64,000 nucleotides of DNA, taken from the IMG/VR virus record IMGVR_UViG_3300030330_004956, positions 64,001 through 128,000 of that record; one strand, 5' to 3'. Shown here one piece after another: positions 46,758 to 63,238 of the stretch (the first letter of the stretch is position 1; every line of letters begins with the position of its first letter). Source of the DNA: a virus (lineage: Duplodnaviria > Caudoviricetes). The position numbers and the translations under genes were made by a program. The notes under the pieces were generated by a model. It had not been told where the DNA came from and did not search any database. It saw only the letters and a list, made by a program, of their open reading frames with translations.

Positions 46758-46987
46758 TGAGTCCATGGATAAAGTCAGGCTTGATCGAGTTTATCAAGAT
46801 CATGGCATTGTTTGGCTTGATTGTATTCTGTTATAGTCTTGTGCTGATCATATGTCAGGATTTGGGTGTCGATCCAATTTGGGGATACATAACAGTTTTT
46901 GTTGCAGCTATGTTTTCAATAGCACTCGGCACAGAAAAATTCAAATACGAATTGCAAAGAATATCAAACAAAAAGGAGAAAGAATGA
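46757..46987 (+). CDS. Small 2-TM membrane protein
   Basis: GGAGG RBS; two hydrophobic helices and a basic tail. Confidence 0.55.
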   Translation: MSPWIKSGLIEFIKIMALFGLIVFCYSLVLIICQDLGVDPIWGYITVFVAAMFSIALGTEKFKYELQRISNKKEKE

Positions 46988-49384: not shown

Positions 49385-50284
49385 ATGGCTATAAACAAAG
49401 TTTTTTATAACGAAGCCTCGGCAGCTAAACTGGGATGGGATCCAACTTGGTTTGGCTGTGATTCTTATGATGAGAAATTGGTTCGTGAAATTAAGAAGTG
49501 GCAAAGAGCCCATGGGCTGACTGCCGATGGGTTGTGCGGCGAAAACACTTTCAGAGTTCTTTTCAACGAACGACAGGCTAACATTTCAGATTATGTTTCG
49601 CCAAACTACGATAACGATGGTTTGGCACGCATTATATACAATGGCAATGAGTTCCCAATCGAGTGGGACAAGACGGTGCTTTGGACAGACAAGGGCGGAC
49701 ACATGGCTAAACTTGGAAACTATAAGAGCATGGCTGGAAAGCGAATCAGAAAGCCAACACAGTTTGTAAATCATTGGGACGTATGTTTGAATTCTAGAAC
49801 ATGCCAACGTGTCTTGGACAGGAGGGGTATCAGTGTACACTTCCTCATCGATAATGACGGCACAATCTACCAAACCATGGATTTGCAACATATCGGATGG
49901 CATGCCGGCTCAAGCAAGATTAACGCAAAGTCAATCGGAGTCGAGATAAGTTGCGCTTTCGATCTTAAGTGGCAAAGCTGGTACAGAAAGCACGGCTTTG
50001 GAGAACGCCCAATCCTTAAGAGTTCTTATGTTCATGGCAAAAGACTACGCCCCCACCTAGGCTTCTATCCTGTGCAATTAGAGGCTCTACAAGCCTTATG
50101 GAAGGCTGTTCACTTGGCATGTGGCATACCACTAGAGACGCCAACTGGAGCCGCAAAAAATGCATACACAGCAGAAGTTTCAAGTGGCAGATTCAAGGGC
50201 TTTGTTTCGCACTATCACATTACAAAGCGCAAGATTGACTGTGGCGGCTTGGATATCGAAAAGTTATTGGAGGACTTGAAATGA
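49385..50284 (+). CDS. Endolysin: peptidoglycan-binding domain plus Amidase_2
   Basis: WQRAHGLTADGLCG; VNHWD, SVHFLIDNDG, WHAG, SIGVEI, SHYH..KIDC. Confidence 0.88.
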   Translation: MAINKVFYNEASAAKLGWDPTWFGCDSYDEKLVREIKKWQRAHGLTADGLCGENTFRVLFNERQANISDYVSPNYDNDGLARIIYNGNEFPIEWDKTVLWTDKGGHMAKLGNYKSMAGKRIRKPTQFVNHWDVCLNSRTCQRVLDRRGISVHFLIDNDGTIYQTMDLQHIGWHAGSSKINAKSIGVEISCAFDLKWQSWYRKHGFGERPILKSSYVHGKRLRPHLGFYPVQLEALQALWKAVHLACGIPLETPTGAAKNAYTAEVSSGRFKGFVSHYHITKRKIDCGGLDIEKLLEDLK

Positions 50285-51735
50285 AAAATTTAGAACATTG
50301 GAAAATGATGCTTGAGGCTTTGAACAATCTGCAAGAAAGGGTTGAAATGAGTGAACCCGTACAAACTGATACCGATAATCCAGAAAACACTGGCAAGTAT
50401 TTCTTGCCGACAATTAAAATTACAGAGGATTGGGGCAGGATCGGATCGAAAGACAGGCAGATCATTGAGAAGTTCACAAGAAACATTGGTGGCACCACAC
50501 TAGCCGAAAAAATTGCAAACATTAATAGTGTTATCACCGACAGAGAAGCAACTACAATTCCAAAAATTCTAGGTTCTATGGTAGTTATCGAGATTCTTAA
50601 TGCCGTGCTCAGAGAGTTTACAGAGTCAGCCGGCGGCTTCATCTTTGAAGGCTTCTTGGCTGGACTGTTCGGTGGCGAAGCTGTGCAGATTACAGATGTT
50701 GGCGATCAGGCAGCAGCAGGCGAGGCAACAGAGGCAGCAGGAAAACCAATCACGGACGTTGTACTAGGCGGCAGAGAGTATTCATTGAAGTTGCTTGGGC
50801 AGACTACGGCAGTGAAAGGCTCATTCAAGAATATGGTTGAGCACTTCCGCGTCAAAGATCATATTGTCTATCTCGATGCAAGACGCACACAGGCAGACGG
50901 AGAGCTTAGTGGCTTAGAGTTTGGAGAGTTCACCATCACCAGAGAAAACTTCATGCAAGTATTCATGGATCCATTCTTGAAAGATGTTACAGCAAAATCA
51001 TCCGAGCCCATTGAGTCAGCAAGTGCATTGAGAACTGCTATGCAAAAACTAGAAACCACAAACAATCCTTTGAAAAAATTAGCATGGACTGGCGGCTGGA
51101 AGCCCGAAGGCGCCACTAGAAGTGTTGGTACGAGCATACAGTATGGAAAGCCAAGGGGCGCCCCAGAGGGTGAACTAAACGAGAAAATATATTATGGTGA
51201 AGACTTTGCCACTGCAATACAGTCTTTCATGAACATGACAGATGAAGAACTGGACAGATATGCACCCTTTACTCTTTCTTGGGCGGACAAGAAGTTCGAA
51301 GGAACAAAAGCAGAAAAACTGTTTGGAAGTTTTACACTAGCATCCGCAATCAAAGATGCAAGTGAATCAGGTGATACCACAAAGCTTTTTGAACTATTGG
51401 AGACAACCCCGGGCTATACTGAATCACTACAGTTTGACTTTACAAGAGGACAAGCAGAATCAATTGTTAACTTTGAAGAGATTGGGACTCTCAACATCAG
51501 TGAGGGTACCTTGAAGGATACATGGCTAGCATATGGGGAAGTACTATCGCAAACCGTTGAGCCAATTTACAAATCTCTTAATGAGTTTACAGAGAACATC
51601 AACTCTTTCCTTACCGAAGAACAAAATCAAGACGGTAACAGAAAACAGTATGGCTTGGCTGCTGGCACCAGCGCCAAAGATCTAAAAACCGCAACAGACA
51701 AGGCAGTGCAAGATATGACTGCCGATGCTGAATAA
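50281..51735 (+). CDS. Leader-bearing protein with PD-(D/E)xK-like nuclease motif
   Basis: MKNLEHWKMMLE; GFIFEGFLAGLFGG...ITDV...YSLKL. Confidence 0.45.
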   Translation: MKNLEHWKMMLEALNNLQERVEMSEPVQTDTDNPENTGKYFLPTIKITEDWGRIGSKDRQIIEKFTRNIGGTTLAEKIANINSVITDREATTIPKILGSMVVIEILNAVLREFTESAGGFIFEGFLAGLFGGEAVQITDVGDQAAAGEATEAAGKPITDVVLGGREYSLKLLGQTTAVKGSFKNMVEHFRVKDHIVYLDARRTQADGELSGLEFGEFTITRENFMQVFMDPFLKDVTAKSSEPIESASALRTAMQKLETTNNPLKKLAWTGGWKPEGATRSVGTSIQYGKPRGAPEGELNEKIYYGEDFATAIQSFMNMTDEELDRYAPFTLSWADKKFEGTKAEKLFGSFTLASAIKDASESGDTTKLFELLETTPGYTESLQFDFTRGQAESIVNFEEIGTLNISEGTLKDTWLAYGEVLSQTVEPIYKSLNEFTENINSFLTEEQNQDGNRKQYGLAAGTSAKDLKTATDKAVQDMTADAE

Positions 51736-51754
51736 AAATAACATGTCAATCGTA
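51729..51754 (+). promoter_or_regulatory. ECF-like promoter TGAATA-N16-CGTA (groEL)
   Basis: Motif copy overlapping a GAA-TAA stop. Confidence 0.8.
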
Positions 51755-51773
51755 TAACTATTATGGAGGAACA

Positions 51774-53363
51774 GTGAAGAAATATTCTAACACTAGCGAA
51801 CTAAGACAATCAATCGTTGATGGAATCAACATTCTAGCGGACAATGTAGCCGCTACGTTAGGGCCGAAAGGGCAGAACGTAATTATTCAAAGAAAAGATA
51901 ATCTACCATTTGTAACAAAAGACGGTGTAACCGTAGCAAAGTTTGTTAACTTAGAAGATCCGTTTCAAAATGCTGCTGTAGAAATTCTAAAGCAAGCCAG
52001 CCTGCAAACCAATGCAGAGGCTGGCGATGGAACGACAACTTCCACTGTAATCGCCAGAGCTATCATTAACGAGGCACAAAAGTATATTGTGTCTGGCGTT
52101 TCGCCTATTGAACTAAAGAGAGGAATGGATAAGACATGTGACGCCCTAGTTGATAACCTAATCGACTCAGCCCGTCCTATCCGTTCGCTTGAAGATATCC
52201 AGCACATTGCTAAGATTTCTGCCAACAATGATAAAATGATTGGTGATGTCGTAGCACGCGCTGTGGATCTTGCCGGTAAAGACGGCACAGTTATTATCGA
52301 AGAAGCAAGATCCAATAAAACCTCTTTAAACCTTATTGAAGGTTTTAAGATTGATTCAGGCTTTGCAGCCGGTGCCTTTGTGACTGATGAACGTCGAGGC
52401 ATATGTTATTACGACAATCCACTCATCCTCGTTACGGACGAGCGACTAGAGAGTGTTGATGAGATGCTTCCGTTACTTGAACAAGTGGCTAGAGATGGAC
52501 GTCCTCTCGTCATTGTTGCGGAGGAAATCGTCGAACAGGCACTGGCTGCTCTTATTATGAATGCCATTCGTGGAACAATGCGAATTGTTGGCATCAAAGC
52601 TCCCCGCTACGGAGAAGAGCGCAAGAACATTCTAAAGGATCTTGCAATTTCCGTTGGAGCAACTTACATTTCTAGGGAGTCTAATGTCCTTATGAGGGAC
52701 GTCAAGATTGAACACCTAGGTACCTGCAAATCTATCGAAGCAGGAACATCTAAGACTACCTTTGTTGGCGGCAAAGGAGAGGGCGAGGCTGTCGAAAAGA
52801 GGATTGAGGCTGTTAAGGCATTGCTAAAGCAGTCCGAATCGACGCACGAACAAAAGACATTGAATGAGCGCATCACACGACTCGCATCAGGAGTGTCGGT
52901 TATTCGTGTTGGGGGTGCCACGCAAGTGGAAATGACAGAGACTAAGCACAGAGTTGAAGATGCCCTAGAAGCCATCAGATCCGCCCAGAAGGACGGAATT
53001 ACAACTGGTGGTGGTACTGCTCTTCTTAGTGCCAGAAGTGGCTTAGAAGAGGATCTAACGTTCGAAAACGCAGATCAGAGACTGGGCGCAGAAATCCTTC
53101 TTAGAGCATGTGAATCGCCATTCCGCCAACTCTGCCGCAATGCTGGGGTTTCGGAAGATATCATATTGAGTCAGATTGAGTCATCGCAGCAAGAAAATGC
53201 TGGATATGATTTTCGTAATCTTAAAGAATGTGATATGTATACTACAGGTATAATAGATCCTGTAAAAGTAACCAAGACTGCACTTATCAATGCTGTGTCG
53301 GTTGCTTCAACTTTGCTAAACACAAATCATGCAATTGTTCAGATTGATAGCAAAGAATCATAA
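51774..53363 (+). CDS. groEL: Chaperonin GroEL
   Basis: TLGPKG, TKDGVTVAK, AGDGTTT, KAPRYG, IRVGGAT, GGGTAL, GIIDPVKV. Confidence 0.97.
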   Translation: MKKYSNTSELRQSIVDGINILADNVAATLGPKGQNVIIQRKDNLPFVTKDGVTVAKFVNLEDPFQNAAVEILKQASLQTNAEAGDGTTTSTVIARAIINEAQKYIVSGVSPIELKRGMDKTCDALVDNLIDSARPIRSLEDIQHIAKISANNDKMIGDVVARAVDLAGKDGTVIIEEARSNKTSLNLIEGFKIDSGFAAGAFVTDERRGICYYDNPLILVTDERLESVDEMLPLLEQVARDGRPLVIVAEEIVEQALAALIMNAIRGTMRIVGIKAPRYGEERKNILKDLAISVGATYISRESNVLMRDVKIEHLGTCKSIEAGTSKTTFVGGKGEGEAVEKRIEAVKALLKQSESTHEQKTLNERITRLASGVSVIRVGGATQVEMTETKHRVEDALEAIRSAQKDGITTGGGTALLSARSGLEEDLTFENADQRLGAEILLRACESPFRQLCRNAGVSEDIILSQIESSQQENAGYDFRNLKECDMYTTGIIDPVKVTKTALINAVSVASTLLNTNHAIVQIDSKES

Positions 53364-53374
53364 GGGAGAATGCA

Positions 53375-53671
53375 GTGAGAATTACAATTCAAAAAACAAT
53401 AGATGTAGGAGAAGTGCCTATTGAAATCAATGAAGCTTACAGAAACGCAATCAATAGGGTTAGAGATACTTTGAGCCTGCTACAGTCAGCACAGGAACTG
53501 GCAGGCGAAGGAAAATATGTTGACTCGTCATCATGCGCCGAGAAAGCAAGATTGTCATTGACACTACTTGACAAGAACATCGAAGAAGCCCAGTCGCTTT
53601 GTTTGTCATATGAGAGGCTTAGGATTGAAGAGCAGATGCCGACACCAAGAGAGGTGCCTGATGATGAATAG
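53375..53671 (+). CDS. Hypothetical protein
   Basis: GGAG RBS; GTG start. Confidence 0.55.
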   Translation: MRITIQKTIDVGEVPIEINEAYRNAINRVRDTLSLLQSAQELAGEGKYVDSSSCAEKARLSLTLLDKNIEEAQSLCLSYERLRIEEQMPTPREVPDDE

Positions 53672-53963
53672 CGGATCTCTAGTATATCAAAAAGGTGATC
53701 TGGTTACGATGAAGCAAGCCTCTCTGGTTTGCCAAATAGAAAAAGATCTGGATGGAACCCTAAAAAGATCCTTCCGAAGATTATCAGATCCCCTTAGTGG
53801 AGTCTTCTTGGGCTTCTTAGACAAGCGACTGGTAGAAGATAACGATGATCTTGATTATCTAAACAGATCCGCAGCAATGAAAACGCCTTGCAGGATCGCA
53901 GTCGGAAAAAGCATATATTATGTTGACGAGAAATCGTTTTTCTTTCACATTCAAAGGAGTTAA
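53661..53963 (+). CDS. Hypothetical protein (SH3/KOW-like start KGDLV)
   Basis: GAGG RBS; overlaps the upstream ORF. Confidence 0.5.
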   Translation: MMNSGSLVYQKGDLVTMKQASLVCQIEKDLDGTLKRSFRRLSDPLSGVFLGFLDKRLVEDNDDLDYLNRSAAMKTPCRIAVGKSIYYVDEKSFFFHIQRS

Positions 53964-53965
53964 AA

Positions 53966-54250
53966 GTGAGAAAGTTAGTAGAAGTAGTACAAAATAGCGC
54001 AACAAGCAAAACATATAGCCTTAGAGAAGTATTTGTAAATCCAGAATTTGTCATATCTTTAGTGCCAGATTCAAACACAAAGAGGCTTTTGACAGAGGGC
54101 AGGCTTCCGGAAGGGCTAGATAACAATATAGAATTCACTAGAGTTACTGTGCATAAAGGAGCCTCTGGGTTAGAAATGGTTGTTGTAGGCAATACATCAG
54201 ATATCAAAACAAAGTTGTTTGCCGGCACCGGTAAACTTCTAAAGGGGTAG
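53966..54250 (+). CDS. Hypothetical protein
   Basis: AGGAG RBS; LREVFVNPEFV. Confidence 0.55.
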   Translation: MRKLVEVVQNSATSKTYSLREVFVNPEFVISLVPDSNTKRLLTEGRLPEGLDNNIEFTRVTVHKGASGLEMVVVGNTSDIKTKLFAGTGKLLKG

Positions 54251-54252
54251 CT

Positions 54253-54516
54253 GTGTTAGATTACTTTATAATTTATGCTAAAGTTGATTGTGGATTCTGT
54301 GTCAGAGTCATCAATAAAATGAATGAGCACGGCTTTGATCACGTCTTGTGTTTGGTGGATAGGGCACCAGACTTCTACGAGGACAAGAAAAAAGAACACG
54401 AACACACAACGGTGCCTATGATTGTGAAAGTTAATAAAATTTCCAAAGAAGAACAGTTCATAGGTGGCTGTGATGACTTTATGTCTTGGCTAGGAACTCA
54501 GGGTTACGAATGCTAG
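54253..54516 (+). CDS. Glutaredoxin
   Basis: CGFC, TVPMI, FIGGCDD. Confidence 0.9.
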   Translation: MLDYFIIYAKVDCGFCVRVINKMNEHGFDHVLCLVDRAPDFYEDKKKEHEHTTVPMIVKVNKISKEEQFIGGCDDFMSWLGTQGYEC

Positions 54517-54941
54517 ACTATGAATATGATGATGTTATATATTACCGATGGATTCAGAGAGTAGCAGACTTTGCAAAGATAAATTATCAAGCAGAGGTTG
54601 ACTTGGTTTCTGAAGAGAGCGCATTCATATATGAATACAAAAGTAAGAAAGTTAGTGTAAAGGGCGATACCCCATCGCGTGACAAACTTTATGTGCTGCT
54701 ACATGAGATCGGGCACCTGACTAGAATGATTGACAACAGTGAAGATCCAACTTTCTTTATGGATCGCGCTGGTTCAGGAAACATCAGAGAAAAGGTAATG
54801 ACATTCATAGAAGAAGTTCTGGCTTGGAAGAAAGGAGAAGAGATTGCCATTCACTTAGGCATCCCCTTAGAGGAAGCAGCTTGGAGAAGAATGGTAGATG
54901 GTAGTCTAAGAAAATATGTTGACTGGCTAAAAGGAGAATAA
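54510..54941 (+). CDS. HExxH metallopeptidase-like protein (ImmA/IrrE-like)
   Basis: LLHEIGH...EEVLAW. Confidence 0.65.
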   Translation: MLDYEYDDVIYYRWIQRVADFAKINYQAEVDLVSEESAFIYEYKSKKVSVKGDTPSRDKLYVLLHEIGHLTRMIDNSEDPTFFMDRAGSGNIREKVMTFIEEVLAWKKGEEIAIHLGIPLEEAAWRRMVDGSLRKYVDWLKGE

Positions 54942-54942
54942 A

Positions 54943-55311
54943 ATGAAAGTAGTTAATAAGCCATGGGGCTCAGAAATTTGGTGGGCTCACGCTGAAGGTA
55001 AATATATGGGGAAGATTCTGAATATAACAAAGGGCAATAGACTCTCTTTGCAGTATCACGATGTGAAAGATGAAACAGTCTATGTATTGAAAGGTACTTT
55101 GACTTTAGAAACCGCTAGCTCACCTGACACCGCGCTGCTGGTTGGTACCGAGAGTAAAACTCTTCACGTCGGAGAGGTATTTAGGGTTCTCCCAAAGACA
55201 GTGCATCGTTTTTGTGCAAACATAAGCGACGTAACATTATTGGAAGTCAGCACAGATCATCCGGATGATGTGGTGAGAGTACAAGACGACTATGATAGGG
55301 AGGATAAGTGA
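54943..55311 (+). CDS. Cupin (mannose-6-phosphate isomerase type II-like)
   Basis: KPWG, RLSLQYH..KDE, HRF, EVST, DDVVRVQDDY. Confidence 0.85.
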   Translation: MKVVNKPWGSEIWWAHAEGKYMGKILNITKGNRLSLQYHDVKDETVYVLKGTLTLETASSPDTALLVGTESKTLHVGEVFRVLPKTVHRFCANISDVTLLEVSTDHPDDVVRVQDDYDREDK

Positions 55312-55658
55312 ATTATAAATTATTATCTTTTTACTTTCTGATTATTGTGGCAGCACAGTTTGTTGCTTGGTACCAATCCAATTCTTTATTACTGTGGGAT
55401 TGGCTAAAGAACAATTATATTCCAGTGGTTGTCTGCACCTCTCCAGTTGTGGGGCTGTGCTTTGCTTATGGCACCAAGGTGGGGCATGATGTAATGGGTT
55501 CCCTGTGGGCTGTGCGATTCTCTGCGTTTGCGATAGGTTATCTAGTGTTTATTTTCTTGGCTTGGTATCATTTGGGCGAAAGCCCGTTTTCGCCAAAGAA
55601 CATTGTGACTTCTTTGCTTTGTTTTTCACTGCTGGGCGTACAGGTATTTTGGAAATAG
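55308..55658 (+). CDS. 4-TM DMT/SMR-like membrane protein
   Basis: Four hydrophobic helices; LGESP..KN. Confidence 0.55.
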   Translation: MNYKLLSFYFLIIVAAQFVAWYQSNSLLLWDWLKNNYIPVVVCTSPVVGLCFAYGTKVGHDVMGSLWAVRFSAFAIGYLVFIFLAWYHLGESPFSPKNIVTSLLCFSLLGVQVFWK

Positions 55659-55659
55659 T

Positions 55660-55684
55660 TGAATAATATTATTATCCATTCGTA
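55660..55684 (+). promoter_or_regulatory. ECF-like promoter TGAATA-N15-CGTA (tRNA-Leu)
   Basis: Motif copy ending 12 nt before the tRNA. Confidence 0.8.
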
Positions 55685-55696
55685 TTATATATGTCT

Positions 55697-55782
55697 GCTC
55701 CGGTGGTGAAATAGGTAAACACACGAGACTTAAAATCTCGCGCCCTTTGGGCTTGCCGGTTCGATTCCGGCTCGGAGTACCA
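55697..55782 (+). tRNA. tRNA-Leu(TAA)
   Basis: GCTCCGG/TCGGAGT acceptor; CGAGA-CT-TAA-AA-TCTCG; long variable arm; A73; CCA encoded. Confidence 0.95.
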
Positions 55783-55815
55783 ATGACAAAAAGCAACAAT
55801 TAAAAGGAGTAGAAA

Positions 55816-56328
55816 ATGAAAAATGTAGTATATGGAACAGTGTTGGCTTTATCTGCGGTGGGGTGCTCGAAGAAACAGGCTCCACCACCAACAGTGATCG
55901 ATGGAGAAAAGGTGCCAGAATGGATGATTAATCCGCACTTAGGCTGCGCAGCGGGAGTTTACCAGACGAGAGGTAATGTTTCTATGGCAGTTGATATGGC
56001 ACAGATCAGAGCAACAGCAAACCTTGGCAGACAACTGCAAGTATATGTGAACTCGTTGGTTCAGCAGTATATCGAAGAGGGTGAACAAAATGAAGACATT
56101 TACACAGAAGATCTGGCAAGAAATATATCTGAGGTTTCCACAAAGGTTTCTATGAGTGGCGCCATCCCAAAGAAGATGGCTGTGCATGGCAAGAACTATT
56201 ACAGCTTGGTGTGCATGGAGCCAGAGATCTTCATTAGTGCTTTTGATCAGATGGATCAGCTTGACGAGAAAGTTCGCAAAGGGCTTCGCAAGAGAGCAGA
56301 GAGAGCTTTCCAAGCTTTAGAAGATTAA
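55816..56328 (+). CDS. LPP20-like lipoprotein
   Basis: Lipobox AVGC; PEWM..P; A..RA.ANL..QL...V. Confidence 0.65.
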   Translation: MKNVVYGTVLALSAVGCSKKQAPPPTVIDGEKVPEWMINPHLGCAAGVYQTRGNVSMAVDMAQIRATANLGRQLQVYVNSLVQQYIEEGEQNEDIYTEDLARNISEVSTKVSMSGAIPKKMAVHGKNYYSLVCMEPEIFISAFDQMDQLDEKVRKGLRKRAERAFQALED

Positions 56329-56331
56329 GTT

Positions 56332-56357
56332 TGAATAAAAGTGTGAGAGTAGTCGTA
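56332..56357 (+). promoter_or_regulatory. ECF-like promoter TGAATA-N16-CGTA (uvsE)
   Basis: Motif copy. Confidence 0.8.
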
Positions 56358-56379
56358 TTATAAAACACGGGGGTTAGTT

Positions 56380-57294
56380 ATGACAATCAATCTAGGATAT
56401 GCATGTATCAACATGGAACTTCAAAAACAAAAGGTTTGCTCCAACAGGGGCATGATCAAGCGTACATTCAAAGCTAAGGGCATTCCCTATGCATCGGAGT
56501 TGGCACTCATCAATGTCAAGGCAATGCGCCGTATCATTCAGTGGAACAACGACAACAACATCAACGTATATCGTATGACTTCGTGTCTGTTCCCTTGGTT
56601 CTCAGAGTATGATATCTTTGATCTTCCAGACATTGACGAGATTGCAGAAGTCATGGCTGACGCTGGCAAGATTGCAATGGATGCCGGACAACGTTTATCG
56701 TTTCACCCCGGCCCATTCAACTGCCTAGGCTCGCACAAAGACGAGGTTGTGCAAAAGACTATTCACGAACTCAACGCACACTCAGAGCAGATGGATCTTA
56801 TGGGGCTACCTAGTAGCCCTATGGCTAAGATCAACATTCACATCGGTGGTGCATATGGAGAGCATGACAAGACTATGGCACGTTTCTGCAAGAACTTCGA
56901 TCGCCTCGCTCCGTCAACACAGGATAGGCTTACAGTGGAGAATGATGACAGGGCATCCCTGTTCTCAACCAAGATGTTGTATCACGGAGTATCGCGACAC
57001 ATTGACATACCTATTGTGTTTGACTCGCATCATCATGAGTTGGGCAAGCAAGATGCTACATACCGCGAGGCTTTCTATATGGCTAGAGAGACTTGGCAAC
57101 GTCGCAATGCAAAGCAACAGTGTCACCACTCCAACTCCAAAAAAGACTACGAGGACAGCACTGTCAAAGTCACAGCACATTCTGACTGGTACTATACTCC
57201 ATTCGAGAACTTTGATGAAGAAGTTGATGTGGTACTGGAGTGTAAAAAGAAAGAGCAGGCTCTAATTAAGTATAGGCAAGACTTCGGGGTTTAG
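56380..57294 (+). CDS. uvsE: UV-damage endonuclease
   Basis: LGYACIN, YRMTS, RLSFHPG, NIHIGG, VENDD, VFDSHHH, AHSD, LECK.KE. Confidence 0.93.
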   Translation: MTINLGYACINMELQKQKVCSNRGMIKRTFKAKGIPYASELALINVKAMRRIIQWNNDNNINVYRMTSCLFPWFSEYDIFDLPDIDEIAEVMADAGKIAMDAGQRLSFHPGPFNCLGSHKDEVVQKTIHELNAHSEQMDLMGLPSSPMAKINIHIGGAYGEHDKTMARFCKNFDRLAPSTQDRLTVENDDRASLFSTKMLYHGVSRHIDIPIVFDSHHHELGKQDATYREAFYMARETWQRRNAKQQCHHSNSKKDYEDSTVKVTAHSDWYYTPFENFDEEVDVVLECKKKEQALIKYRQDFGV

Positions 57295-57295
57295 T

Positions 57296-57511
57296 ATGTG
57301 GAAGGTTTACAAATACAATGGGACATATATTCAAGGTGATCTGATCAGCCAACACAAGACTGAATCTGCGGCTTTGAAGAAAGCCAAAAAAGAAATCAAC
57401 TTTACTCATGCTGTCAAAGACAGCAGAAAAGATGAAAAGTTAATTTGGCTAGACGCAGAAGATCACACCCCAGTAGGAATTATTGTCAAAAAAACTAAAG
57501 GAGGGACTTAG
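57296..57511 (+). CDS. Hypothetical protein
   Basis: 71-aa ORF coupled to uvsE. Confidence 0.55.
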   Translation: MWKVYKYNGTYIQGDLISQHKTESAALKKAKKEINFTHAVKDSRKDEKLIWLDAEDHTPVGIIVKKTKGGT

Positions 57512-57513
57512 TT

Positions 57514-57567
57514 ATGAAATGTAAATGCTGTGAGTGCTGCGCGTGTGAATGTGAAAAGTGCTGTTAA
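57514..57567 (+). CDS. 17-aa cysteine-rich micropeptide MKCKCCECCACECEKCC (metallothionein-like)
   Basis: GGAGG RBS upstream; 9 of 17 residues Cys; mixed TGT/TGC codons; fills the gap before tmRNA. Confidence 0.65.
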   Translation: MKCKCCECCACECEKCC

Positions 57568-57572
57568 TTAAT

Positions 57573-57912
57573 GGGGGCGTAATGGCTTCGACAGGGTAGA
57601 ACTCGGAGGACAAGTGCAAGTAGGATTGAGCATCCTTGATCGTTCAAAAACAATAGTTGCAAATAACAACAATCACTTTGACTCTGTTCGCCTAGCGGCT
57701 TAGTCAGGTGGCTGTCTGGAGCCATCTATCCAATCTAGACTTTAGCAGTGGGATCTGCCAAGAAATAATTGTCCCACCTGTCCAATACTCGATCACGGAG
57801 TGGCTAAATTACAGTGATTATCCTGTTAATCGGAGAAATGATTAACTATGCTTGTGAATGACTTTAATCTTGGCTACTGTGGACGGGGGTTCGACTCCCC
57901 CCGCCTCCACCA
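57573..57912 (+). ncRNA. ssrA: tmRNA
   Basis: GGGGGCG/CGCCTCC-A-CCA acceptor with G3:U; TTCGAC near the 5' end; T-arm GGGGG-TTCGACT-CCCCC; tag ANNNNHFDSVRLAA* at 57659-57703. Confidence 0.95.
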
Positions 57913-57925
57913 TCTTTGAAATTGC

Positions 57926-58023
57926 TGGGGAGTGGCGGAATTGGCAGACGCACCTGACTGTTTCTCAGGCGGTGATCAGGCGATAAGCCCACCTTGGAGG
58001 TTCGAATCCTTCCTCTCCAGCCA
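57926..58023 (+). tRNA. Atypical class II-shaped tRNA, anticodon GTT, 26-nt variable arm
   Basis: TGGGGAG/CTCTCCA-G-CCA; Leu-like D arm; CCTGA-CT-GTT-TC-TCAGG; T-arm GGAGG-TTCGAAT-CCTTC. Confidence 0.8.
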
Positions 58024-58027
58024 TTTA

Positions 58028-58104
58028 GGGCACTTAGTTCAGTTGGTTAGAGCACCCCGCTCATAACGGGATAGTCCTCGGTTCAAGTCCGAGAGTGCCC
58101 ACCA
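58028..58104 (+). tRNA. tRNA with CAT anticodon, probably Ile2 (lysidine type); Met not excluded
   Basis: GGGCACT/AGTGCCC-A-CCA; CT-CAT-AA loop; lacks the initiator C1:A72 mismatch. Confidence 0.85.
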
Positions 58105-58122
58105 TTTATAAAAGGAGAGAGA

Positions 58123-58293
58123 ATGATTGACTATACTATTATGGAATACGATATCGAAACTAGAAAATACACACCGATCGGAATTGCTGAAGGCATTGAT
58201 GGAAAACATGCCAAAAGGAATTATATAAAGAGACACGGCTGGAATGAACGTGAAGGTGTACATCTATTTGCAAAGCCGCCGCTTTGTAGATAA
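58123..58293 (+). CDS. Small hypothetical protein inside the tRNA cluster (56 aa)
   Basis: AGGAG RBS; MIDYTIMEYD...KPPLCR*. Confidence 0.55.
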   Translation: MIDYTIMEYDIETRKYTPIGIAEGIDGKHAKRNYIKRHGWNEREGVHLFAKPPLCR

Positions 58294-58300
58294 CAAACAA

Positions 58301-58374
58301 TGCCCCTTAGCTCAGATGGTTAGAGCAGCGGACTGTTAATCCGCGTGTCCTCGGTTCAAGTCCGAGAGGGGCAG
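58301..58374 (+). tRNA. tRNA-Asn(GTT), canonical, CCA not encoded
   Basis: TGCCCCT/AGGGGCA-G; GCGGA-CT-GTT-AA-TCCGC. Confidence 0.93.
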
Positions 58375-58377
58375 CAT

Positions 58378-58453
58378 GGGTTGTTAGCTCAATAGGTAGA
58401 GCATCGGGCTTTTAACCCGCAGGTTCCGAGTTCGAGTCTCGGACAACCCACCA
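58378..58453 (+). tRNA. tRNA-Lys(TTT)
   Basis: GGGTTGT/ACAACCC-A-CCA; CT-TTT-AA loop. Confidence 0.93.
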
Positions 58454-58457
58454 TTTT

Positions 58458-58490
58458 TGAATAAAACATATCTTTGAATCGTACTATTTA
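58458..58490 (+). promoter_or_regulatory. Tandem ECF-like (58458-58483) and CTATTTA (58484-58490) promoters
   Basis: The two motifs abut before the TlpA-like gene. Confidence 0.7.
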
Positions 58491-58506
58491 TATAAAAAGG
58501 TGATTT

Positions 58507-58977
58507 ATGAGAAGTATTTTATTTATGTTGGCTCTGGCTTGTGTAACCCCACCAGCCGCCGCAAACAGTTCTTTTTTGACTAGAGATATAAACGGAAAAG
58601 TTGTAAATCTAGACGAACACAAAGACGAAATAGTTATGCTAAACTTTTGGGCTACTTGGTGCGCCCCATGCAAAGTTGAAATGCCGCAACTACAAAAGCT
58701 AAAAGAAAAGTATGGTGACAAACTAACGATTGTTTCCGTCAGTGTTGACGAAGCAAGAGATAAAAGCAAAATCAAGCCTCTCATAAGAAGAGGTAACTAT
58801 GATTTTATTGTGGTGCATGATGACGATAGGAGCATAATGTCTTTCTACAATCCGTCAATGGATCTGCCGTATAATGTGATCATGGGTTACGGGGGAGATA
58901 TAGTTTGGCAGGGCGCAGGCTATTCACCGGGGAAAGAAAAGGTTTTTGAAAAGATTATTGATAGTATTATCAAATGA
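58507..58977 (+). CDS. TlpA/thioredoxin-like disulfide reductase, exported
   Basis: LNFWATWCAPC..EMP; N-terminal signal/lipobox LALAC. Confidence 0.9.
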   Translation: MRSILFMLALACVTPPAAANSSFLTRDINGKVVNLDEHKDEIVMLNFWATWCAPCKVEMPQLQKLKEKYGDKLTIVSVSVDEARDKSKIKPLIRRGNYDFIVVHDDDRSIMSFYNPSMDLPYNVIMGYGGDIVWQGAGYSPGKEKVFEKIIDSIIK

Positions 58978-58981
58978 TTTA

Positions 58982-59009
58982 TTGACATCAGAGATCTGGT
59001 GTCTATAAT
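58982..59009 (+). promoter_or_regulatory. Sigma70-consensus promoter TTGACA-N16-TATAAT
   Basis: Both hexamers perfect; upstream of the Hsp20 gene. Confidence 0.75.
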
Positions 59010-59073
59010 AAAGTAAGATCGCTCATTTGAGGATCTTCAAAGTCATACTTTGCTTAATAAGGAGGATATAAAT

Positions 59074-59499
59074 ATGACACAACTACAACTAGCAATCCCA
59101 TCACTAATGGGTAGAAACGTATGGAGTGATTTCTTCGACGATTTCTTATCAAATCCGACGAAAGTCGTAAAACAAACTACAACAGGCTATCCAGTCACAG
59201 ACATTTTCAGAGACGTAGAAGAAAATCAAGTTATCGAAATGGCACTGGCTGGGTTTACAAAAGAGTCAATCACTGTCGAAACACAATCTAATCAGATTAC
59301 GATTAGATCAGAGGGCATCGAAAATCGTCCCTCGGATAATCATGGCGGTATTGCACGCAGAGCCTTCAAGAAAACTTTCATTGATTATAACAATGAGTTA
59401 GAACTTTCCGATGCAAAAGTAACTTTTGTACAAGGATTGTTGCGCGTTGTTATTCCGATGAAAGAGGCGGCATACCCTAGGCAGATAACGATTGAATAA
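59074..59499 (+). CDS. Small heat-shock protein (Hsp20/IbpA-like)
   Basis: GYPVTDI, IEMALAGF, GGIARRAF, GLLRV, RQITIE. Confidence 0.9.
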   Translation: MTQLQLAIPSLMGRNVWSDFFDDFLSNPTKVVKQTTTGYPVTDIFRDVEENQVIEMALAGFTKESITVETQSNQITIRSEGIENRPSDNHGGIARRAFKKTFIDYNNELELSDAKVTFVQGLLRVVIPMKEAAYPRQITIE

Positions 59500-59518
59500 A
59501 AACAGTAGTTCAATCGTA
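59493..59518 (+). promoter_or_regulatory. ECF-like promoter TGAATA-N16-CGTA
   Basis: Motif copy overlapping a GAA-TAA stop. Confidence 0.8.
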
Positions 59519-59533
59519 CTATAACTATGGTAA

Positions 59534-59568
59534 GGGTTGTTACTCTTATTTGGGTAACAACCTATTTA
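59534..59568 (+). promoter_or_regulatory. Hairpin abutting a CTATTTA promoter
   Basis: GGGTTGTTACTC-TTATTT-GGGTAACAACCT; CTATTTA at 59562-59568. Confidence 0.55.
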
Positions 59569-59590
59569 CTATGCCAAGGAGGCACATTAT

Positions 59591-60043
59591 ATGAATAAAA
59601 GAAAATGGTACAACTATGTCTTTGAAACACAGGACGATACATATAAGCAAAAGCTCTACAAAGTGCCCATGCGATTCAAAGTAAGAAAAAAGGATGGCGG
59701 GAACAAGTCCGAAACAGAGGACGATTTACGGGCAGTGCCTCAAATAACAGCACTTTCTCTTCCTAGAGATAGGAAGTCAGACAGTGAGAGTTGGTATATG
59801 ACTTACGATTTAAAATTTGCATTACCGATAGGTGGCTCACCGCAAGATCATGTTAGGAATGACATGGTGCCAGCGGTAAACGCCGTCAAGGGATTGGAAA
59901 TACTTTCTTATGGAGAGGCTTTTCAAGTGTATGACGCTCAGGACGATACAATAGGAGATCCCGATAAGGATCGCTCCAAGGTTTTTGGTGGCGATGACAG
60001 GAGGCAATCCAAGAGCGACACCGACATAGAGGGAGGGGAGTAA
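59591..60043 (+). CDS. Hypothetical protein, probable late/virion
   Basis: MNKRKWYNYVFE leader; late-type promoter. Confidence 0.55.
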   Translation: MNKRKWYNYVFETQDDTYKQKLYKVPMRFKVRKKDGGNKSETEDDLRAVPQITALSLPRDRKSDSESWYMTYDLKFALPIGGSPQDHVRNDMVPAVNAVKGLEILSYGEAFQVYDAQDDTIGDPDKDRSKVFGGDDRRQSKSDTDIEGGE

Positions 60044-60396
60044 TGTCAATAGAAGAAGCAAAAGAAGATGGCTTAGACAATCTAAAACCTAAGCCACCAC
60101 CGAAACTTGCGCCAAGAGGCATCAGAACATTTACCGTATGTAGAAACTACGACGAGACTGGTGTGTCTGGCGAGGGCGTTGTTATTGAGGGGGTGACTAT
60201 GGCTAGTGGGCATTGTATGATCCACTGGCTTTATCCACCACCTAGGGGCGGTATAGCTATATTTGACTCTATCGAAGATTTTTTGAAAGTTCATGTGCTA
60301 CCGCACCCTACGAATAAAACAGTCATCACATTTGATGATGGGGAGCAACATAAGTATGGACAAGGATGGGAAGAAGAAATACAGGGTGAAGATTAA
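60043..60396 (+). CDS. Hypothetical protein
   Basis: R..DETGVSGEGVVIEG; coupled by TAATG. Confidence 0.6.
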   Translation: MSIEEAKEDGLDNLKPKPPPKLAPRGIRTFTVCRNYDETGVSGEGVVIEGVTMASGHCMIHWLYPPPRGGIAIFDSIEDFLKVHVLPHPTNKTVITFDDGEQHKYGQGWEEEIQGED

Positions 60397-61135
60397 TACT
60401 GGCTATAAACGCCTGATTATGTTTGATTTCGATGACACTCTGGCTCAAACAGAAGAGGCTACTCTAATCAGAGATAAAAAATCAAACAGAATTGTACATC
60501 ACCTACACGGACAGTCAGAGTTTGACAACTATGAACTGAACGACAAGAAGCATTATTTTGATTTCTCAGAGTTTCTACAGGTTTCAAAATACGCCAGTCC
60601 AATTTTACCTACCTTGGGGCTAATGAAGAAGTATCTAAAAGACACGGATACTAAAGTAATAATCCTCACAGCCAGACAGCAAGCCGCTGCTCCAGCGATC
60701 GAAGCCTATTTAGAAAGTTTAGGAGTAGACACCTCTAGAGTAACTTTCTATGGCTGTGATGGTTCAAAGAACAAGCACCGGTATATGAAGTCTGCCATCA
60801 GGCATTTCAAGATCACAAACGAGGTTGTGGTATTCGAAGATAGCGTGAACAACATAAAAGACTTACTACAATTGGAATATGATTTTCCTGACATATCTTT
60901 TGATTTTGTTCAAGTGATAGATCCACAAAATACTGACGAGGATCTGGATGAAGCAAGAAAACACAGTTACCCACAGGGCGAAACTGGCACTGAGCCATAT
61001 CAAAGATTGCTCAAGAGAATACACCCTGCCAAGAAAAGAAGATTGCTCGGACTAGGCGCTAATGACTATTTAGTTAAGGGAACGAAGAAAGTCAAAGACT
61101 ATAAGCGTTCTAAATCGGCACCGCCAAGTGGGTAA
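60386..61135 (+). CDS. HAD-superfamily phosphatase (PNKP/RNA-repair-like) with basic C-terminal tail
   Basis: FDFDDTL, ILTAR, K, FEDS..N. Confidence 0.8.
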   Translation: MKINTGYKRLIMFDFDDTLAQTEEATLIRDKKSNRIVHHLHGQSEFDNYELNDKKHYFDFSEFLQVSKYASPILPTLGLMKKYLKDTDTKVIILTARQQAAAPAIEAYLESLGVDTSRVTFYGCDGSKNKHRYMKSAIRHFKITNEVVVFEDSVNNIKDLLQLEYDFPDISFDFVQVIDPQNTDEDLDEARKHSYPQGETGTEPYQRLLKRIHPAKKRRLLGLGANDYLVKGTKKVKDYKRSKSAPPSG

Positions 61136-61140
61136 TTATA

Positions 61141-61893
61141 GTGGGAAACAACAAGAAAACAGTAAAATGTAGCTTTTGTAACAGGTTGGGGCACAACCGA
61201 GTTACTTGCCCCAAACTAAAAGAAGCCATAGATTCAATAGAAGAAAACTATGGCTCCACACACCCAGATGTGGTTGAGCATAAAGATTATTTAGAATCTT
61301 ACAGCAAGAAATCTAAAAAAAATGCTAACAGGAATAGATTTTGTTCTTATTGCAGAGAGGAATCGCACAATGTTCGAACCTGCAAGGAGCGATCTAAAGA
61401 TGTTTCAAAGATTAAAAAGTTAAATTTCAGGTGGAGAGCTAAGATAAAAAAAGATCTATTTGATAGAGGAATTGGGGTGGGAGCGATCATATCCACTGCC
61501 AACCACATAAGCAGCATAGAGAATAAAAATTCACCTTGGACTATTGTTTCTATTGATTGGGATAGGATAAATTGGATAACCGACAATGCCCGCGTATTCA
61601 AGATCATTCTAATGTCAAACCCTGCGATACAAAGAGAACTGACATTAGAGCAAATAATGAACCAGTCTGAATCGTATTATCATAGGTGGACTGTCATTTC
61701 AAAATGCAGCAGTCTTGATATACCAGAAGGCTGGGACACCATATCAGATCCCGCTTTCGATGAAAAGTGTGTAGAGATATTCCAAGGGATAACAAAGGCT
61801 CAATTCGATACCATTTTTATGGAAATGAACGCAGATCCTTCATGGCTAAAGTCGCAATTCTACGAAGAACAAGGAGAAATTAATGATGTCTAG
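61141..61893 (+). CDS. Twin CCHC zinc-knuckle protein
   Basis: CSFCNRLGHNRVTC and CSYCREESHNVRTC. Confidence 0.75.
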   Translation: MGNNKKTVKCSFCNRLGHNRVTCPKLKEAIDSIEENYGSTHPDVVEHKDYLESYSKKSKKNANRNRFCSYCREESHNVRTCKERSKDVSKIKKLNFRWRAKIKKDLFDRGIGVGAIISTANHISSIENKNSPWTIVSIDWDRINWITDNARVFKIILMSNPAIQRELTLEQIMNQSESYYHRWTVISKCSSLDIPEGWDTISDPAFDEKCVEIFQGITKAQFDTIFMEMNADPSWLKSQFYEEQGEINDV

Positions 61894-62134
61894 AGAGAAA
61901 CACCTAAAAGATTTACCAATACAAAAGCAATTACGAAAGATAAAAGAACAAAGAGAAAAGTTTCAAGTGCTCATGGCATATAATGACTTGGTAGAAAGCA
62001 TGATAGAGACAGACAAGATGATAGAAGATATGCCAGAGGGGGAAGAGAAGCAGCAAAAATTAGAACAGCAAGAACTAGCGTGGGAGTTGATGATGGCTGA
62101 AGATATGATTTCATTGATAAAGATAGAGAATTGA
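61883..62134 (+). CDS. Small coiled-coil hypothetical protein
   Basis: AGGAG RBS. Confidence 0.55.
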   Translation: MMSREKHLKDLPIQKQLRKIKEQREKFQVLMAYNDLVESMIETDKMIEDMPEGEEKQQKLEQQELAWELMMAEDMISLIKIEN

Positions 62135-62135
62135 T

Positions 62136-62459
62136 ATGGCAGATTTTATAAGAGTAGGGATGCTAAATGCAGAGCAGCTTTTTTCTGACGGGAAGCTAGA
62201 GAAAGGTACTCTTGTAAAATATAGGGCTCAAACCCACACTATGACAACGTATACTCATTCCACGATGACTCCAAAAGATTATTACTGGCAATATGGAATA
62301 ATCTCTGAAGTTCTCTGGTACGCTCGGACGCCAAGGATAGGAACCGTTTACACTACAGACTATCCCATAGTATATGACTTGACAGTACACAACATTCAAG
62401 AGGGAAAGAAAGACTTTTTAGACTTCAACAACTTTGAAATCATGATTTTAGTTGAATAA
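62136..62459 (+). CDS. Hypothetical protein (KGTLV, SH3-like)
   Basis: Coupled ORF ending GAA-TAA. Confidence 0.5.
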   Translation: MADFIRVGMLNAEQLFSDGKLEKGTLVKYRAQTHTMTTYTHSTMTPKDYYWQYGIISEVLWYARTPRIGTVYTTDYPIVYDLTVHNIQEGKKDFLDFNNFEIMILVE

Positions 62460-62478
62460 AAGTGCCCGCTGGTTCGTA
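62453..62478 (+). promoter_or_regulatory. ECF-like promoter TGAATA-N16-CGTA
   Basis: Motif copy overlapping a GAA-TAA stop. Confidence 0.8.
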
Positions 62479-62512
62479 TTATGTATATGATTTCTTACAC
62501 ACGGGAGGAAAA

Positions 62513-63238
62513 ATGAGTGTTGTTGACGGTATTCTATCAACAATGCGAACTAAAAAGTTTGCATTGGAAGTTTTGTCCATGGTTGAAGAGGTGGCAGGAC
62601 ACCACTTCTATTCTTTGTACCACTTGGGCGGCGCTAATACTATCCGAGAATGGGGCGAGTTGGCAGAAGATGATCCTTCACAGCGCACCTCTCAGATCAC
62701 CGTGCGTATCTGTCACGACTTTGAGTATGCAATCGCCAAAGTCCTAAAAGATAAGTATGGATACGAGATTGTTCCAAAGTCAGGGACAAACGACATTGTA
62801 GGAAACTTTGATGTTGCTGTAAAGAGTGGGGAAACGATCCTCGCCTTTGAAGTAAAGACTACTCAGGCGAAAGACTGGACAGGCTCAACGCATAGTCATA
62901 ACTGTGGCAAGGTTCCATTCTACGCCCTTATACAATACGACTTGGACTTGGACATACCCTTGGGCAAAAACTCGCTTCACGGGCTGTTTAAGGCGTGCCA
63001 CTTCTCTGTTACCTCACCTCTTGGTGACGGCAGCGCAATCATTGAATGGAGTGGCAAAGCAACAAATAGCAACTCGCGCACCACTGGCAAAATCAGAAAA
63101 GGCAACGCAGAAAAGTATCAGCCTATGATTTGCTTGGGGCGTACTTCTATAATGCGCGCAAGAAAGTGGACTAAAATAATCAAAGAGGATCTGACGCCTT
63201 ACCGCGGTATCTTCGGCAATCCAAAGAAAATCAGATAA
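62513..63238 (+). CDS. PD-(D/E)xK restriction-endonuclease-like protein
   Basis: HDFE helix...FDVAV......AFEVKTT; ATG after GGAGG. Confidence 0.6.
   Translation: MSVVDGILSTMRTKKFALEVLSMVEEVAGHHFYSLYHLGGANTIREWGELAEDDPSQRTSQITVRICHDFEYAIAKVLKDKYGYEIVPKSGTNDIVGNFDVAVKSGETILAFEVKTTQAKDWTGSTHSHNCGKVPFYALIQYDLDLDIPLGKNSLHGLFKACHFSVTSPLGDGSAIIEWSGKATNSNSRTTGKIRKGNAEKYQPMICLGRTSIMRARKWTKIIKEDLTPYRGIFGNPKKIR

Follow-up and report, generated by a model that had tools for sequence, protein, structure and literature searches.

The window analysed here (64,000 nucleotides, positions 64,001 to 128,000 of the IMG/VR record IMGVR_UViG_3300030330_004956) comes from a marine, T4-like phage whose genome lacks the four-base word GACC/GGTC, and its locus at 50281-63238 raises the question of whether a nuclease of the phage itself is behind that absence. 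A first-pass annotation had proposed two nucleases (ORF 50281 and ORF 62513, the latter referred to as R below) that would cut foreign DNA at motifs deleted from the phage genome, GACC/GGTC and/or CCWGG, without cognate methylation. The results presented below point to another arrangement, in which the phage is probably equipped with a DNA-cutting enzyme from which its own genome alone is exempt. Our preferred reading, to which a probability of roughly 0.5 is assigned, is that R and the methyltransferase M form a phage-borne type II restriction-modification (R-M) module directed at GRCC/GGYC, a word purged from the genome, with M covering the remaining sites and non-self DNA being shredded. 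The features concerned are listed in Table 1.

Table 1. Coordinates of the features discussed, numbered from the first letter of the window.
Feature	Position	Strand	Description
Second methyltransferase	27071-27634		MT-A70
Promoter-like motif	44179-44204	+	Same type as the motif upstream of R; upstream of a 67-aa ORF (44223-44426) and M
M	44419-45345	+	N6_N4_Mtase, PF01555 (Pfam E 1e-41)
ORF 50281	50281-51735	+	484 aa; core gene of the phage group
Promoter-like motif	62453-62478	+	TGAATA-N16-CGTA; directly upstream of R
R (ORF 62513)	62513-63238	+	Predicted restriction endonuclease, 241 aa; PD-(D/E)XK fold in model

Word loss in the phage genome

Both absences claimed in the first-pass annotation were found in the window and in the whole 184,889-bp genome: GACC/GGTC does not occur, with about 600-880 copies expected (0/876 for the whole genome), and neither does CCWGG (about 150-175 expected). 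CTGCAG, GAGGAG, GTGCAC and GTCGAC are also missing from this genome. The effect of the loss of GACC/GGTC is visible in codon choice, since Asp-Pro is encoded as GAT-CCN in 163 of 163 cases. Among the 54 remaining copies of GGCC, 48 are unavoidable because they encode Gly-Pro or Trp-Pro, and these dipeptides are themselves depleted in the encoded proteins (Gly-Pro: 39 observed vs. 144 expected). The total loss of GACC/GGTC, the exclusive use of GAT-CCN and the loss of Gly-Pro and Trp-Pro indicate selection, and not drift. A process in which methylation by M speeds up the mutation of target cytosines, so that the word erodes without selection, would agree with a depletion that follows the methyltransferase clade (see below), but it accounts poorly for a loss that is total (0 of ~880 sites) and that extends to codon pairs and to protein sequence; moreover, N4-methylcytosine is not known to be a strong mutational hotspot. 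Such decay is given next to no credence here.

R, a predicted type II restriction endonuclease

The reading frame of R starts at an ATG (62513) preceded by the ribosome-binding site GGGAGG (62503-62508). Its AF2 model (pLDDT 85, pTM 0.86) matched ten solved structures with Z ≥ 5, namely nine type II restriction enzymes (ThaI, Z 7.8; NaeI, 7.2; EcoRV, 6.6; and SfiI, BglI, SwaI, NlaIV, MspI and NhoI) and the homing endonuclease I-Ssp6803I, the best of them, ThaI, being a modest match (rmsd 3.8, 152 aligned residues). In a Foldseek search with the same model EcoRV ranked top (probability 0.8-0.93), and the model has the alpha-beta-beta-beta core common to solved restriction enzymes. The catalytic pattern E71...D100...E113-V-K115 was invariant across 21 close homologs; D100, E113 and K115 were unchanged in 34 divergent homologs, down to 20% identity, and E71 was present in 30 of 32 distinct homologs. 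The restriction-endonuclease-like character first ascribed to this ORF is therefore upheld, and by modelled fold and active site R is predicted to be a type II restriction endonuclease.

Searches of Pfam, PHROG, NCBIfam and PADLOC with R and its distant homologs matched no family, a PDB sequence-profile search with R was empty, and nucleotide and protein searches of the phage collection with R and ORF 50281 gave no match. Judged by these profile comparisons, R belongs to a new sequence family, absent from the catalogued restriction-enzyme families (Pfam, PADLOC, NCBIfam and PHROG). Its homologs had phage-like surroundings in every genomic context inspected. With the type IIP enzymes of the EcoRV/ThaI/NaeI/SfiI group, R shares the core fold of the model and the placement of the catalytic residues (Glu on the first helix, an Asp opening a strand, and E-x-K on the strand that follows), as well as the proximity of its homologs to a methyltransferase gene in related phages. 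It differs from that group in that its sequence does not detectably resemble any family that has been solved or catalogued, and in a putative site that looks like a degenerate, non-palindromic 4-mer.

M as the separated partner of R

No methyltransferase gene adjoins R in the window and both methyltransferases reported elsewhere in it were confirmed, as had been claimed; no Res-type gene was seen next to either M or R within the window. M scored 143.7 bits against its Pfam profile (cut-off 26.7) and contains TSPPYD and DPFVGAGTT, corresponding to the catalytic (S/D/N)PPY and the FxGxG AdoMet motifs. The SPPY motif suggests that M methylates N4-cytosine, a specificity that we take to carry over from known enzymes, and the solved proteins closest to M were N4-cytosine methyltransferases, CcrM, M.MboIIA and M.PvuII.

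The initial description of M as an orphan does not survive comparison with relatives. In ~23 related contigs the R homolog overlaps or abuts a PF01555 methyltransferase, the overlapping pairs having the order R then M (L084, L086, L091, L094 and ~19 further viral contigs), and in L086 the methyltransferase of the overlapping pair is 69% identical to M. M is the orthologue of the R-linked methyltransferase of the relatives, and the ancestral partner of R. In relatives, the neighbours of the pair are dUTPase, thioredoxin and purine-metabolism genes. The two genes lie 17 kb apart in the present genome and 23 kb apart in another lineage (L098/L176). The promoter attributed to R corresponds to a promoter-like motif directly upstream of it, of a type (TGAATA-N15/16-CGTA) with 14 matches in the window where 0.17 would be expected; R and M both lie behind this phage promoter type despite their separation. 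With the ancestral partner kept under the same promoter type, the notion of discrimination without cognate methylation finds no support.

One observation runs counter to an R-M model: a GACC-specific methyltransferase has little to do in a genome free of GACC, but the gene for M is undamaged and its sequence well conserved. For this to make sense, M must either act on GGCC as well or serve some other function.

GRCC depletion and the R-M module across relatives

In order to relate nuclease presence to word loss, the observed/expected ratio of GACC+GGTC in contigs carrying R was compared with that of 75 relatives without R or M. No copy was observed in the close clade (0/86, 0/64, 0/25, 0/109 and 0/95), and ratios ranged from 0.00 to 0.32 in distant lineages with R, vs. 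0.41 to 1.34 in the 75 controls. In the methyltransferase tree, 30 of the 31 members of the clade of M were located in GACC-depleted contigs, the exception within the clade being a short contig (L118; 12 observed vs. 19 expected, 0.62). Two R-M pairs outside this clade (L138 and L158) were found in contigs where GACC/GGTC is not depleted.

An unbiased contrast of all 4-mers between carriers and non-carriers of the module separated only GACC (0.13 vs. 0.83) and GGCC (0.18 vs. 1.23), and the avoided word is therefore GRCC/GGYC. The same two words were the most depleted 4-mers in a genome with both R and M (G006; GACC 0.06, GGCC 0.29), while neither was depleted in a complete genome without R (G008). 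No longer recognition word was found in the context of surviving GACC sites, and the dipeptide loss described above was also present in other lineages with R. On a GroEL backbone tree, the depleted lineages with the R-M module were interspersed with normal ones, requiring at least 5 state changes, at least 3 of them forced by well-supported branches. The presence of the module thus co-varies with GRCC depletion across several independent phage lineages, and the proposed association of a nuclease with the loss of GACC/GGTC is supported for ORF 62513.

This pattern bears on the view that the module recognises some other site and that these lineages happen to have inherited the loss of GRCC, or to have been selected for it, on unrelated grounds. 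The site specificity of the module rests on correlation, many contigs are fragments, and the few changes of depleted state on the methyltransferase tree could be counted as few events, all of which would leave room for such a coincidence. Against it stand the interspersed states and forced changes on the GroEL tree, the fact that no other 4-mer distinguishes carriers, and the agreement of near-complete genomes with the module-depletion pattern, and we regard it as quite unlikely.

CCWGG was rejected as a target of R, contrary to what had been proposed, since it occurs at normal frequency in other lineages with R. Its loss is lineage-specific and does not track R.

The direction of causation was also considered. 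Host defence against GRCC would give identical depletion. If the hosts' defence recognises GACC/GRCC, phages could have lost the word and carried a protective methyltransferase of the same specificity, R having come along in a captured R-M unit and serving superinfection exclusion or nothing essential. The other missing sites of the present genome (CCWGG, CTGCAG, GAGGAG, GTGCAC and GTCGAC) have the appearance of classic multi-site restriction avoidance that does not track R, and contigs with M and no detected R are depleted to an equal degree. The latter contigs are fragments (9-21% complete), so that R may be located elsewhere in their genomes. In addition, GACC is known to be recognised in cells by ModH5 of H. 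pylori (PMC5700931), a type III methyltransferase that is adenine-methylating and phase-variable and that has this four-base word in common with the phage system. Several results weigh in the other direction. Lineages with R differ in every other depleted word (AGCT, GATC, CTAG, AATT and CCGG vary among them), so their hosts, and the restriction repertoires of these, seem to differ, while the loss of GRCC is constant; GACC is at normal levels in sister lineages that lack the module; the catalytic residues of R are conserved among the 32 distinct homologs; and R was retained with its own promoter after separation from M. A purge driven by the hosts is accordingly held to be unlikely, if still deserving real weight.

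ORF 50281 and the motif-avoidance system

Homologs of ORF 50281, the other nuclease of the first-pass annotation, formed more than 349 clusters. The proposed nuclease pattern was borne out at the level of residues: E123...D159...S168-L-K170 was unchanged in 33 homologs and, in the model, E123 lies on a helix (115-129), D159 before a strand (160-162) and S168-L-K170 on a strand (165-172), a layout typical of PD-(D/E)XK enzymes, with Ser168 standing where an acidic residue is usual. Support for a nuclease-like fold was weak. Foldseek returned R354 (Cas4-like), PvuII and ThaI at low probability (0.1-0.4), the VIA alignment with ThaI was a weak match (Z 6.6 over 151 residues), and the C-terminal coiled coil dominated two further comparisons, one with representative solved chains and one in which the top PDB hits from Foldseek were re-aligned by VIA. 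A language-model search gave a lead to RE_Eco47II (0.80-0.81, below the reliability level of 0.9). Pfam, PHROGs, NCBIfam and PADLOC yielded nothing beyond a sub-threshold HU-DNA_bdg match, and a PDB sequence-profile search was empty. Based on the modelled layout, a PD-(D/E)XK-like central domain is possible.

ORF 50281 is, however, outside the motif-avoidance system. Its homologs occur at the 75 loci with GACC at 0.41-1.34 of expectation, where losses of CCWGG and GGCC were sporadic, and a role as a second motif-specific nuclease is not supported; the link between nuclease and k-mer expected for it was not observed. An hhalign comparison of its family with that of R detected no relation, and ORF 50281 lacks its own promoter motif. 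The leader said to resemble a packaging signal amounts to an N-terminal LEHWK that is only loosely similar to the MENWRK leader on four other proteins. The full model of two orphan nucleases acting against GACC and/or CCWGG without cognate methylation could draw on the invariant residues of ORF 50281 and on its weak fold matches, including the RE_Eco47II lead; given the normal GACC and mostly normal CCWGG of relatives with this gene, the normal CCWGG of other lineages with R, the dissimilar families and the presence of a cognate methyltransferase, it is very unlikely.

A phage-borne R-M module as a possible cause of the purge

In the R-M reading preferred here, R would be the endonuclease half and M the methyltransferase half of a single module, whose genes overlap in most relatives, with R preceding M, and R would have moved 17 kb downstream in the present clade, keeping its promoter type. 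The module would most likely recognise the degenerate four-base word GRCC/GGYC (GACC, GGTC and GGCC), a site assigned to R from the correlation with word loss. Expressed alongside replication and nucleotide-metabolism genes, R would cut the DNA of the host, or that of a co-infecting phage without the module, about every 100 bp. Self-protection would be achieved first by the purge of the word, GACC/GGTC being gone and GGCC nearly confined to Gly-Pro/Trp-Pro codons, and second by methylation of the remaining sites by M. The purge would be driven by the enzyme of the phage itself, and the benefits may comprise host DNA breakdown, nucleotide supply and exclusion of competitors; the NrdJ, ThyX and dUTPase set noted initially is present. 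A more far-reaching version, in which a lytic marine phage lineage uses R as a general GRCC shredder, with a 185-kb genome rewritten to the point of avoiding Gly-Pro and Trp-Pro in its proteins and with self/non-self discrimination based mainly on motif absence and methylation as back-up, falls somewhat short of even odds.

Should R cut GRCC, the system would be a clear case in which the weapon of a virus, and not that of its host, shapes its whole sequence, down to the amino-acid composition of its proteins. R would then stand for a new family of restriction enzymes whose degenerate 4-base site is of a rare kind and which has potential as a reagent, and safe destruction of host DNA by marine T4-like phages without modified bases would be explained. 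GRCC depletion together with the module could also serve as a sequence-only marker predicting exclusion between co-occurring ocean phages. No specific account of GRCC/GGYC enzymes, or of R-M systems carried by marine T4-like phages, emerged from literature searches.

Three known systems offer partial parallels. Chloroviruses (e.g. PBCV-1) are lytic viruses with short-site type II endonucleases and methyltransferases, which probably serve to degrade host DNA so that its nucleotides can be recycled, and they protect their own DNA by heavy methylation; here, the site has instead been removed from the phage genome, down to changes in proteins, the enzyme is of another family and the virus infects a bacterium. 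Staphylococcal phage K likewise has a large genome completely devoid of a 4-mer (GATC), an avoidance attributed to host enzymes, whereas the avoidance described here co-varies with the R-M module of the phage itself across lineages. Finally, T4 endonucleases II and IV destroy host DNA while the phage is exempt through hydroxymethylcytosine. The present phage would similarly destroy host DNA and be itself exempt, but through site absence plus methylation and not a modified base, and the nuclease families are unrelated.

Genomic setting

The window covers bases 64001-128000 of a single 184,889-bp record from an uncultured marine myovirus, and nearly all of its genes lie on the + strand. A promoter-like motif, TGAATA-N15/16-CGTA, occurs 14 times between 27624 and 63269, always on the + strand (0.17 copies expected), and the genes downstream include those for SSB, NrdJ, DnaE, the methyltransferase, GroEL, UvdE and the nuclease.

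Features discussed in the text (window coordinates unless otherwise stated)
Feature	Position	Remark
Tail sheath	10584-13514	
MT-A70 methyltransferase	27071-27634	
gp32-like SSB	27987-28790	
NrdJ	32479-34338	
ThyX	35523-36269	
DnaE-type polymerase	40563-44018	
Promoter motif of M	44179-44204	
67-aa ORF	44223-44426	
PF01555 methyltransferase (M)	44419-45345	
dUTPase	46852-47505	
ClpP	48620-49378	
Amidase	49385-50284	
ORF 50281	50281-51735	
GroEL	51774-53363	
UvdE	56380-57294	
Zinc-knuckle proteins	61141-61893; 63308-64000	flanking R
Promoter motif of R	62453-62478	TGAATA-N16-CGTA
ORF 62513 (R)	62513-63238	predicted endonuclease
MENWRK/R proteins	34382; 38502; 39410; 169337	last: genome position
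Nuclease gene in L082/L083	10001-10861	locus coordinates
GIY-YIG gene in L097	10888-11580	locus coordinates

A predicted restriction endonuclease and its probable partner methyltransferase

The two ORFs flagged as nuclease candidates in the first-pass annotation, ORF 62513 (hereafter R) and ORF 50281, were both present as described. R starts with an ATG preceded by GGGAGG, has its own promoter motif upstream, and gave zero matches in Pfam, PHROG, NCBIfam and PADLOC. Its AlphaFold model, built on 21 homologs, was confident (pLDDT 85, pTM 0.86); EcoRV chains were the best Foldseek matches, followed by Hjc, SfiI, I-Ssp6803I and NaeI. An independent structure search returned ten matches at Z ≥ 5, all of them type II restriction enzymes or a homing endonuclease (ThaI 7.8, NaeI 7.2, EcoRV 6.6, SfiI 6.5, as well as BglI, SwaI, NlaIV, MspI, NhoI and I-Ssp6803I). 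In the model, E71 is placed on a long helix, D100 at a strand start and E113-V-K115 on the next strand, a predicted active site of canonical PD-(D/E)XK layout. D100, E113 and K115 were invariant in 34 homologs with identities down to 20%, and the complete E-D-E-K set was found in 30 of the 32 distinct homologs from all fetched loci. Based on fold and conserved catalytic residues, R is a predicted restriction endonuclease. When 1.84 billion representative proteins were searched with a profile, only 57 clusters were recovered, and this new, uncatalogued family was found only in phage-like settings among the contexts inspected. Apart from repeated CX2CX4HX4C zinc-knuckle motifs, the proteins flanking R have little in common; a similar gene precedes the nuclease in the related locus L089.

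In four distant lineages (L084, L086/87, L091/92 and L094) an R homolog is followed by a PF01555 methyltransferase, with overlapping stop and start codons, that is 69% identical to the window gene at 44419 (M). The latter, initially taken for an orphan, is by these pairs the probable partner of R, the two genes being the halves of a predicted restriction-modification (R-M) module. Since the paired methyltransferase lies 3-4 kb upstream of ClpP in L086 and L094, the same place as M in the window, R has moved about 17 kb downstream in the window clade and in the P0197 clade (L089/90), where it now follows one Acb5-like and one zinc-knuckle gene; in a third lineage (L098/L176) R and M are 23 kb apart. 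The promoter motif of R also precedes M. The motifs TSPPYD and DPFVGAGTT, together with nearest solved proteins that include N4-cytosine methyltransferases, make N4-cytosine methylation the likeliest chemistry of M.

Downstream of its promoter motif, M is preceded by the 67-aa ORF, which overlaps the start of M. In some close relatives (L082/L083) the nuclease gene is located elsewhere, after AAA_5 and DUF2201 genes, indicating repeated relocation of this gene in the clade, and in another (L097) a GIY-YIG endonuclease gene directly follows the methyltransferase.

Loss of GRCC/GGYC from DNA and of Gly-Pro and Trp-Pro from proteins

The reported absence of GACC/GGTC and CCWGG from the window held, and extends to the whole genome (0 vs. 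about 607-876 and 0 vs. about 148-176 expected, respectively). GAGGAG/CTCCTC, CTGCAG, GTGCAC and GTCGAC were also at zero, and only 54 GGCC sites were found. CAGCTG and AGCT were scarce. Among the GGCC sites, 48 encode Gly-Pro or Trp-Pro, dipeptides for which GGCC is unavoidable if GGTC and GACC are barred: all 39 Gly-Pro (GGC/GGG-CCN) and all 9 Trp-Pro contain it, and six sites only were avoidable. Asp-Pro was written GAT-CCN in 163 of 163 cases, although GAC accounts for 30% of Asp codons. Moreover, the dipeptides themselves were reduced (Gly-Pro 39 vs. 144 expected; Trp-Pro 9 vs. 23), and observed/expected Gly-Pro was 8/52 in the window clade and 65/171 in distant R-carrying lineages vs. 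612/764 in controls. Selection has therefore reached protein sequence, the purge being total at the DNA level for GACC/GGTC and visible in proteins.

Co-variation of the module with GACC/GGTC loss

The controls comprised 75 viral loci in which a homolog of ORF 50281 was present and neither R nor a close M lay within 10 kb on either side. Observed/expected GACC+GGTC was 0/876 in this genome, 0/86, 0/64, 0/25, 0/109 and 0/95 in the close clade (R 62-91% identical) and 0.00-0.32 in distant R-carrying lineages, vs. 0.41-1.34 (typically 0.8-0.9) in controls. In a contrast of all 4-mers between the distant lineages and controls, only GACC (0.13 vs. 0.83) and GGCC (0.18 vs. 1.23) stood out, and no flanking-base effect on their depletion was found; the avoided word, new here, is thus apparently a degenerate 4-base one, GRCC/GGYC.

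A scan with the methyltransferase returned 80 further loci, whose methyltransferase tree contained one clade of 31, 30 of them in GACC-depleted contigs and most with R adjacent, while GACC was normal in sister clades. The exception within the clade was a 6.9-kb contig (L118; 12 observed vs. 19 expected); outside it, the R-M pairs L138 and L158 lacked depletion and presumably have another specificity. In one depleted group (L125, L127, L132; contigs 9-21% complete) no R homolog was seen, and a 396-413-aa ResIII/DEAD-type helicase gene directly precedes the methyltransferase.

A GroEL tree served as a stand-in for the phage backbone. On it, module-carrying lineages with depletion were scattered among normal ones, for example L104 (0.11) beside L020 (0.88) and L102/103 (0.09) beside L048/49/52 (0.64-0.87); parsimony gave 5 changes, at least 3 forced by well-supported branches. 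No R homolog was found anywhere in near-complete control genomes (90%, 100%, 84% and 71% complete). GACC (0.06) and GGCC (0.29) were the two most depleted 4-mers in the fully read 158-kb relative G006, which carries R and M, and neither was depleted in G008 (complete, 190 kb, without R). The module thus co-varies with loss of GACC/GGTC, and an association by mere coincidence is improbable. The 52 surviving GACC/GGTC sites of G006 cluster at 110.5-116 kb and 2.5-12 kb, which suggests recently imported DNA tolerated through methylation.

Origin of the purge

We consider, with a probability of about 0.5, that the phage's own module recognises GRCC/GGYC, a site suggested by the correlation. R would shred host or competitor DNA in the replication phase; the phage would be exempt by having lost the sites, and M would protect the forced GGCC sites along with any imported DNA. 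Decay of the sites driven by methylation itself is scarcely credible. The main rival, distinctly less probable but to be taken seriously, is that the purge results from a host defence against GRCC, whose specificity the phage module simply shares. Every other avoided word varies among carriers, pointing to different hosts, whereas the loss of GRCC is common to them; this favours the phage module as the cause, as does an R kept intact, with its promoter, even when unlinked from M.

The remaining missing words vary between lineages. CCWGG, proposed earlier as a nuclease target, shows no such link to R: its frequency is normal in L084, L086, L091, L094 and G006 (as are CTGCAG and GAGGAG in the latter) and has also been lost sporadically in relatives without R. 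Such lineage-specific losses resemble what avoidance of host restriction enzymes ordinarily leaves behind. Among close relatives, for example, AGCT was 0/69 in L001 and 67/75 in L081. R-M systems carried by viruses are already known, as is restriction-site avoidance; besides the enzyme family and the word, what is new is the coupling of a phage's own module with a purge total in DNA and visible in proteins.

ORF 50281

ORF 50281 directly follows the amidase gene, has no TGAATA-N16-CGTA-type motif of its own ahead of it, and is a core gene (more than 349 homolog clusters) also present in relatives with normal GACC. Its model (pLDDT 75) shows an alpha/beta domain between a disordered N-terminus and a coiled coil at the C-terminus, with invariant E123, D159 and S168-x-K170 at positions expected of a PD-(D/E)XK site. 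Fold matches were weak: ThaI was matched at Z 6.6 across 151 residues, and the probabilities given by Foldseek were low. BFVD gave hints to YqaJ and PD-(D/E)XK proteins, and a language-model search pointed to RE_Eco47II at 0.80-0.81, under the 0.9 reliability level of that tool. ORF 50281 is, tentatively, a possible nuclease of some kind. Profile comparison revealed no relation to the R family, and a part in the R-M or word-loss system is very unlikely; the two-nuclease model of the first-pass annotation is accordingly a long shot. The leader resemblance noted there amounts to a loose LEHWK against the MENWRK/R that occurs within the first 10 residues of four otherwise unlike proteins.
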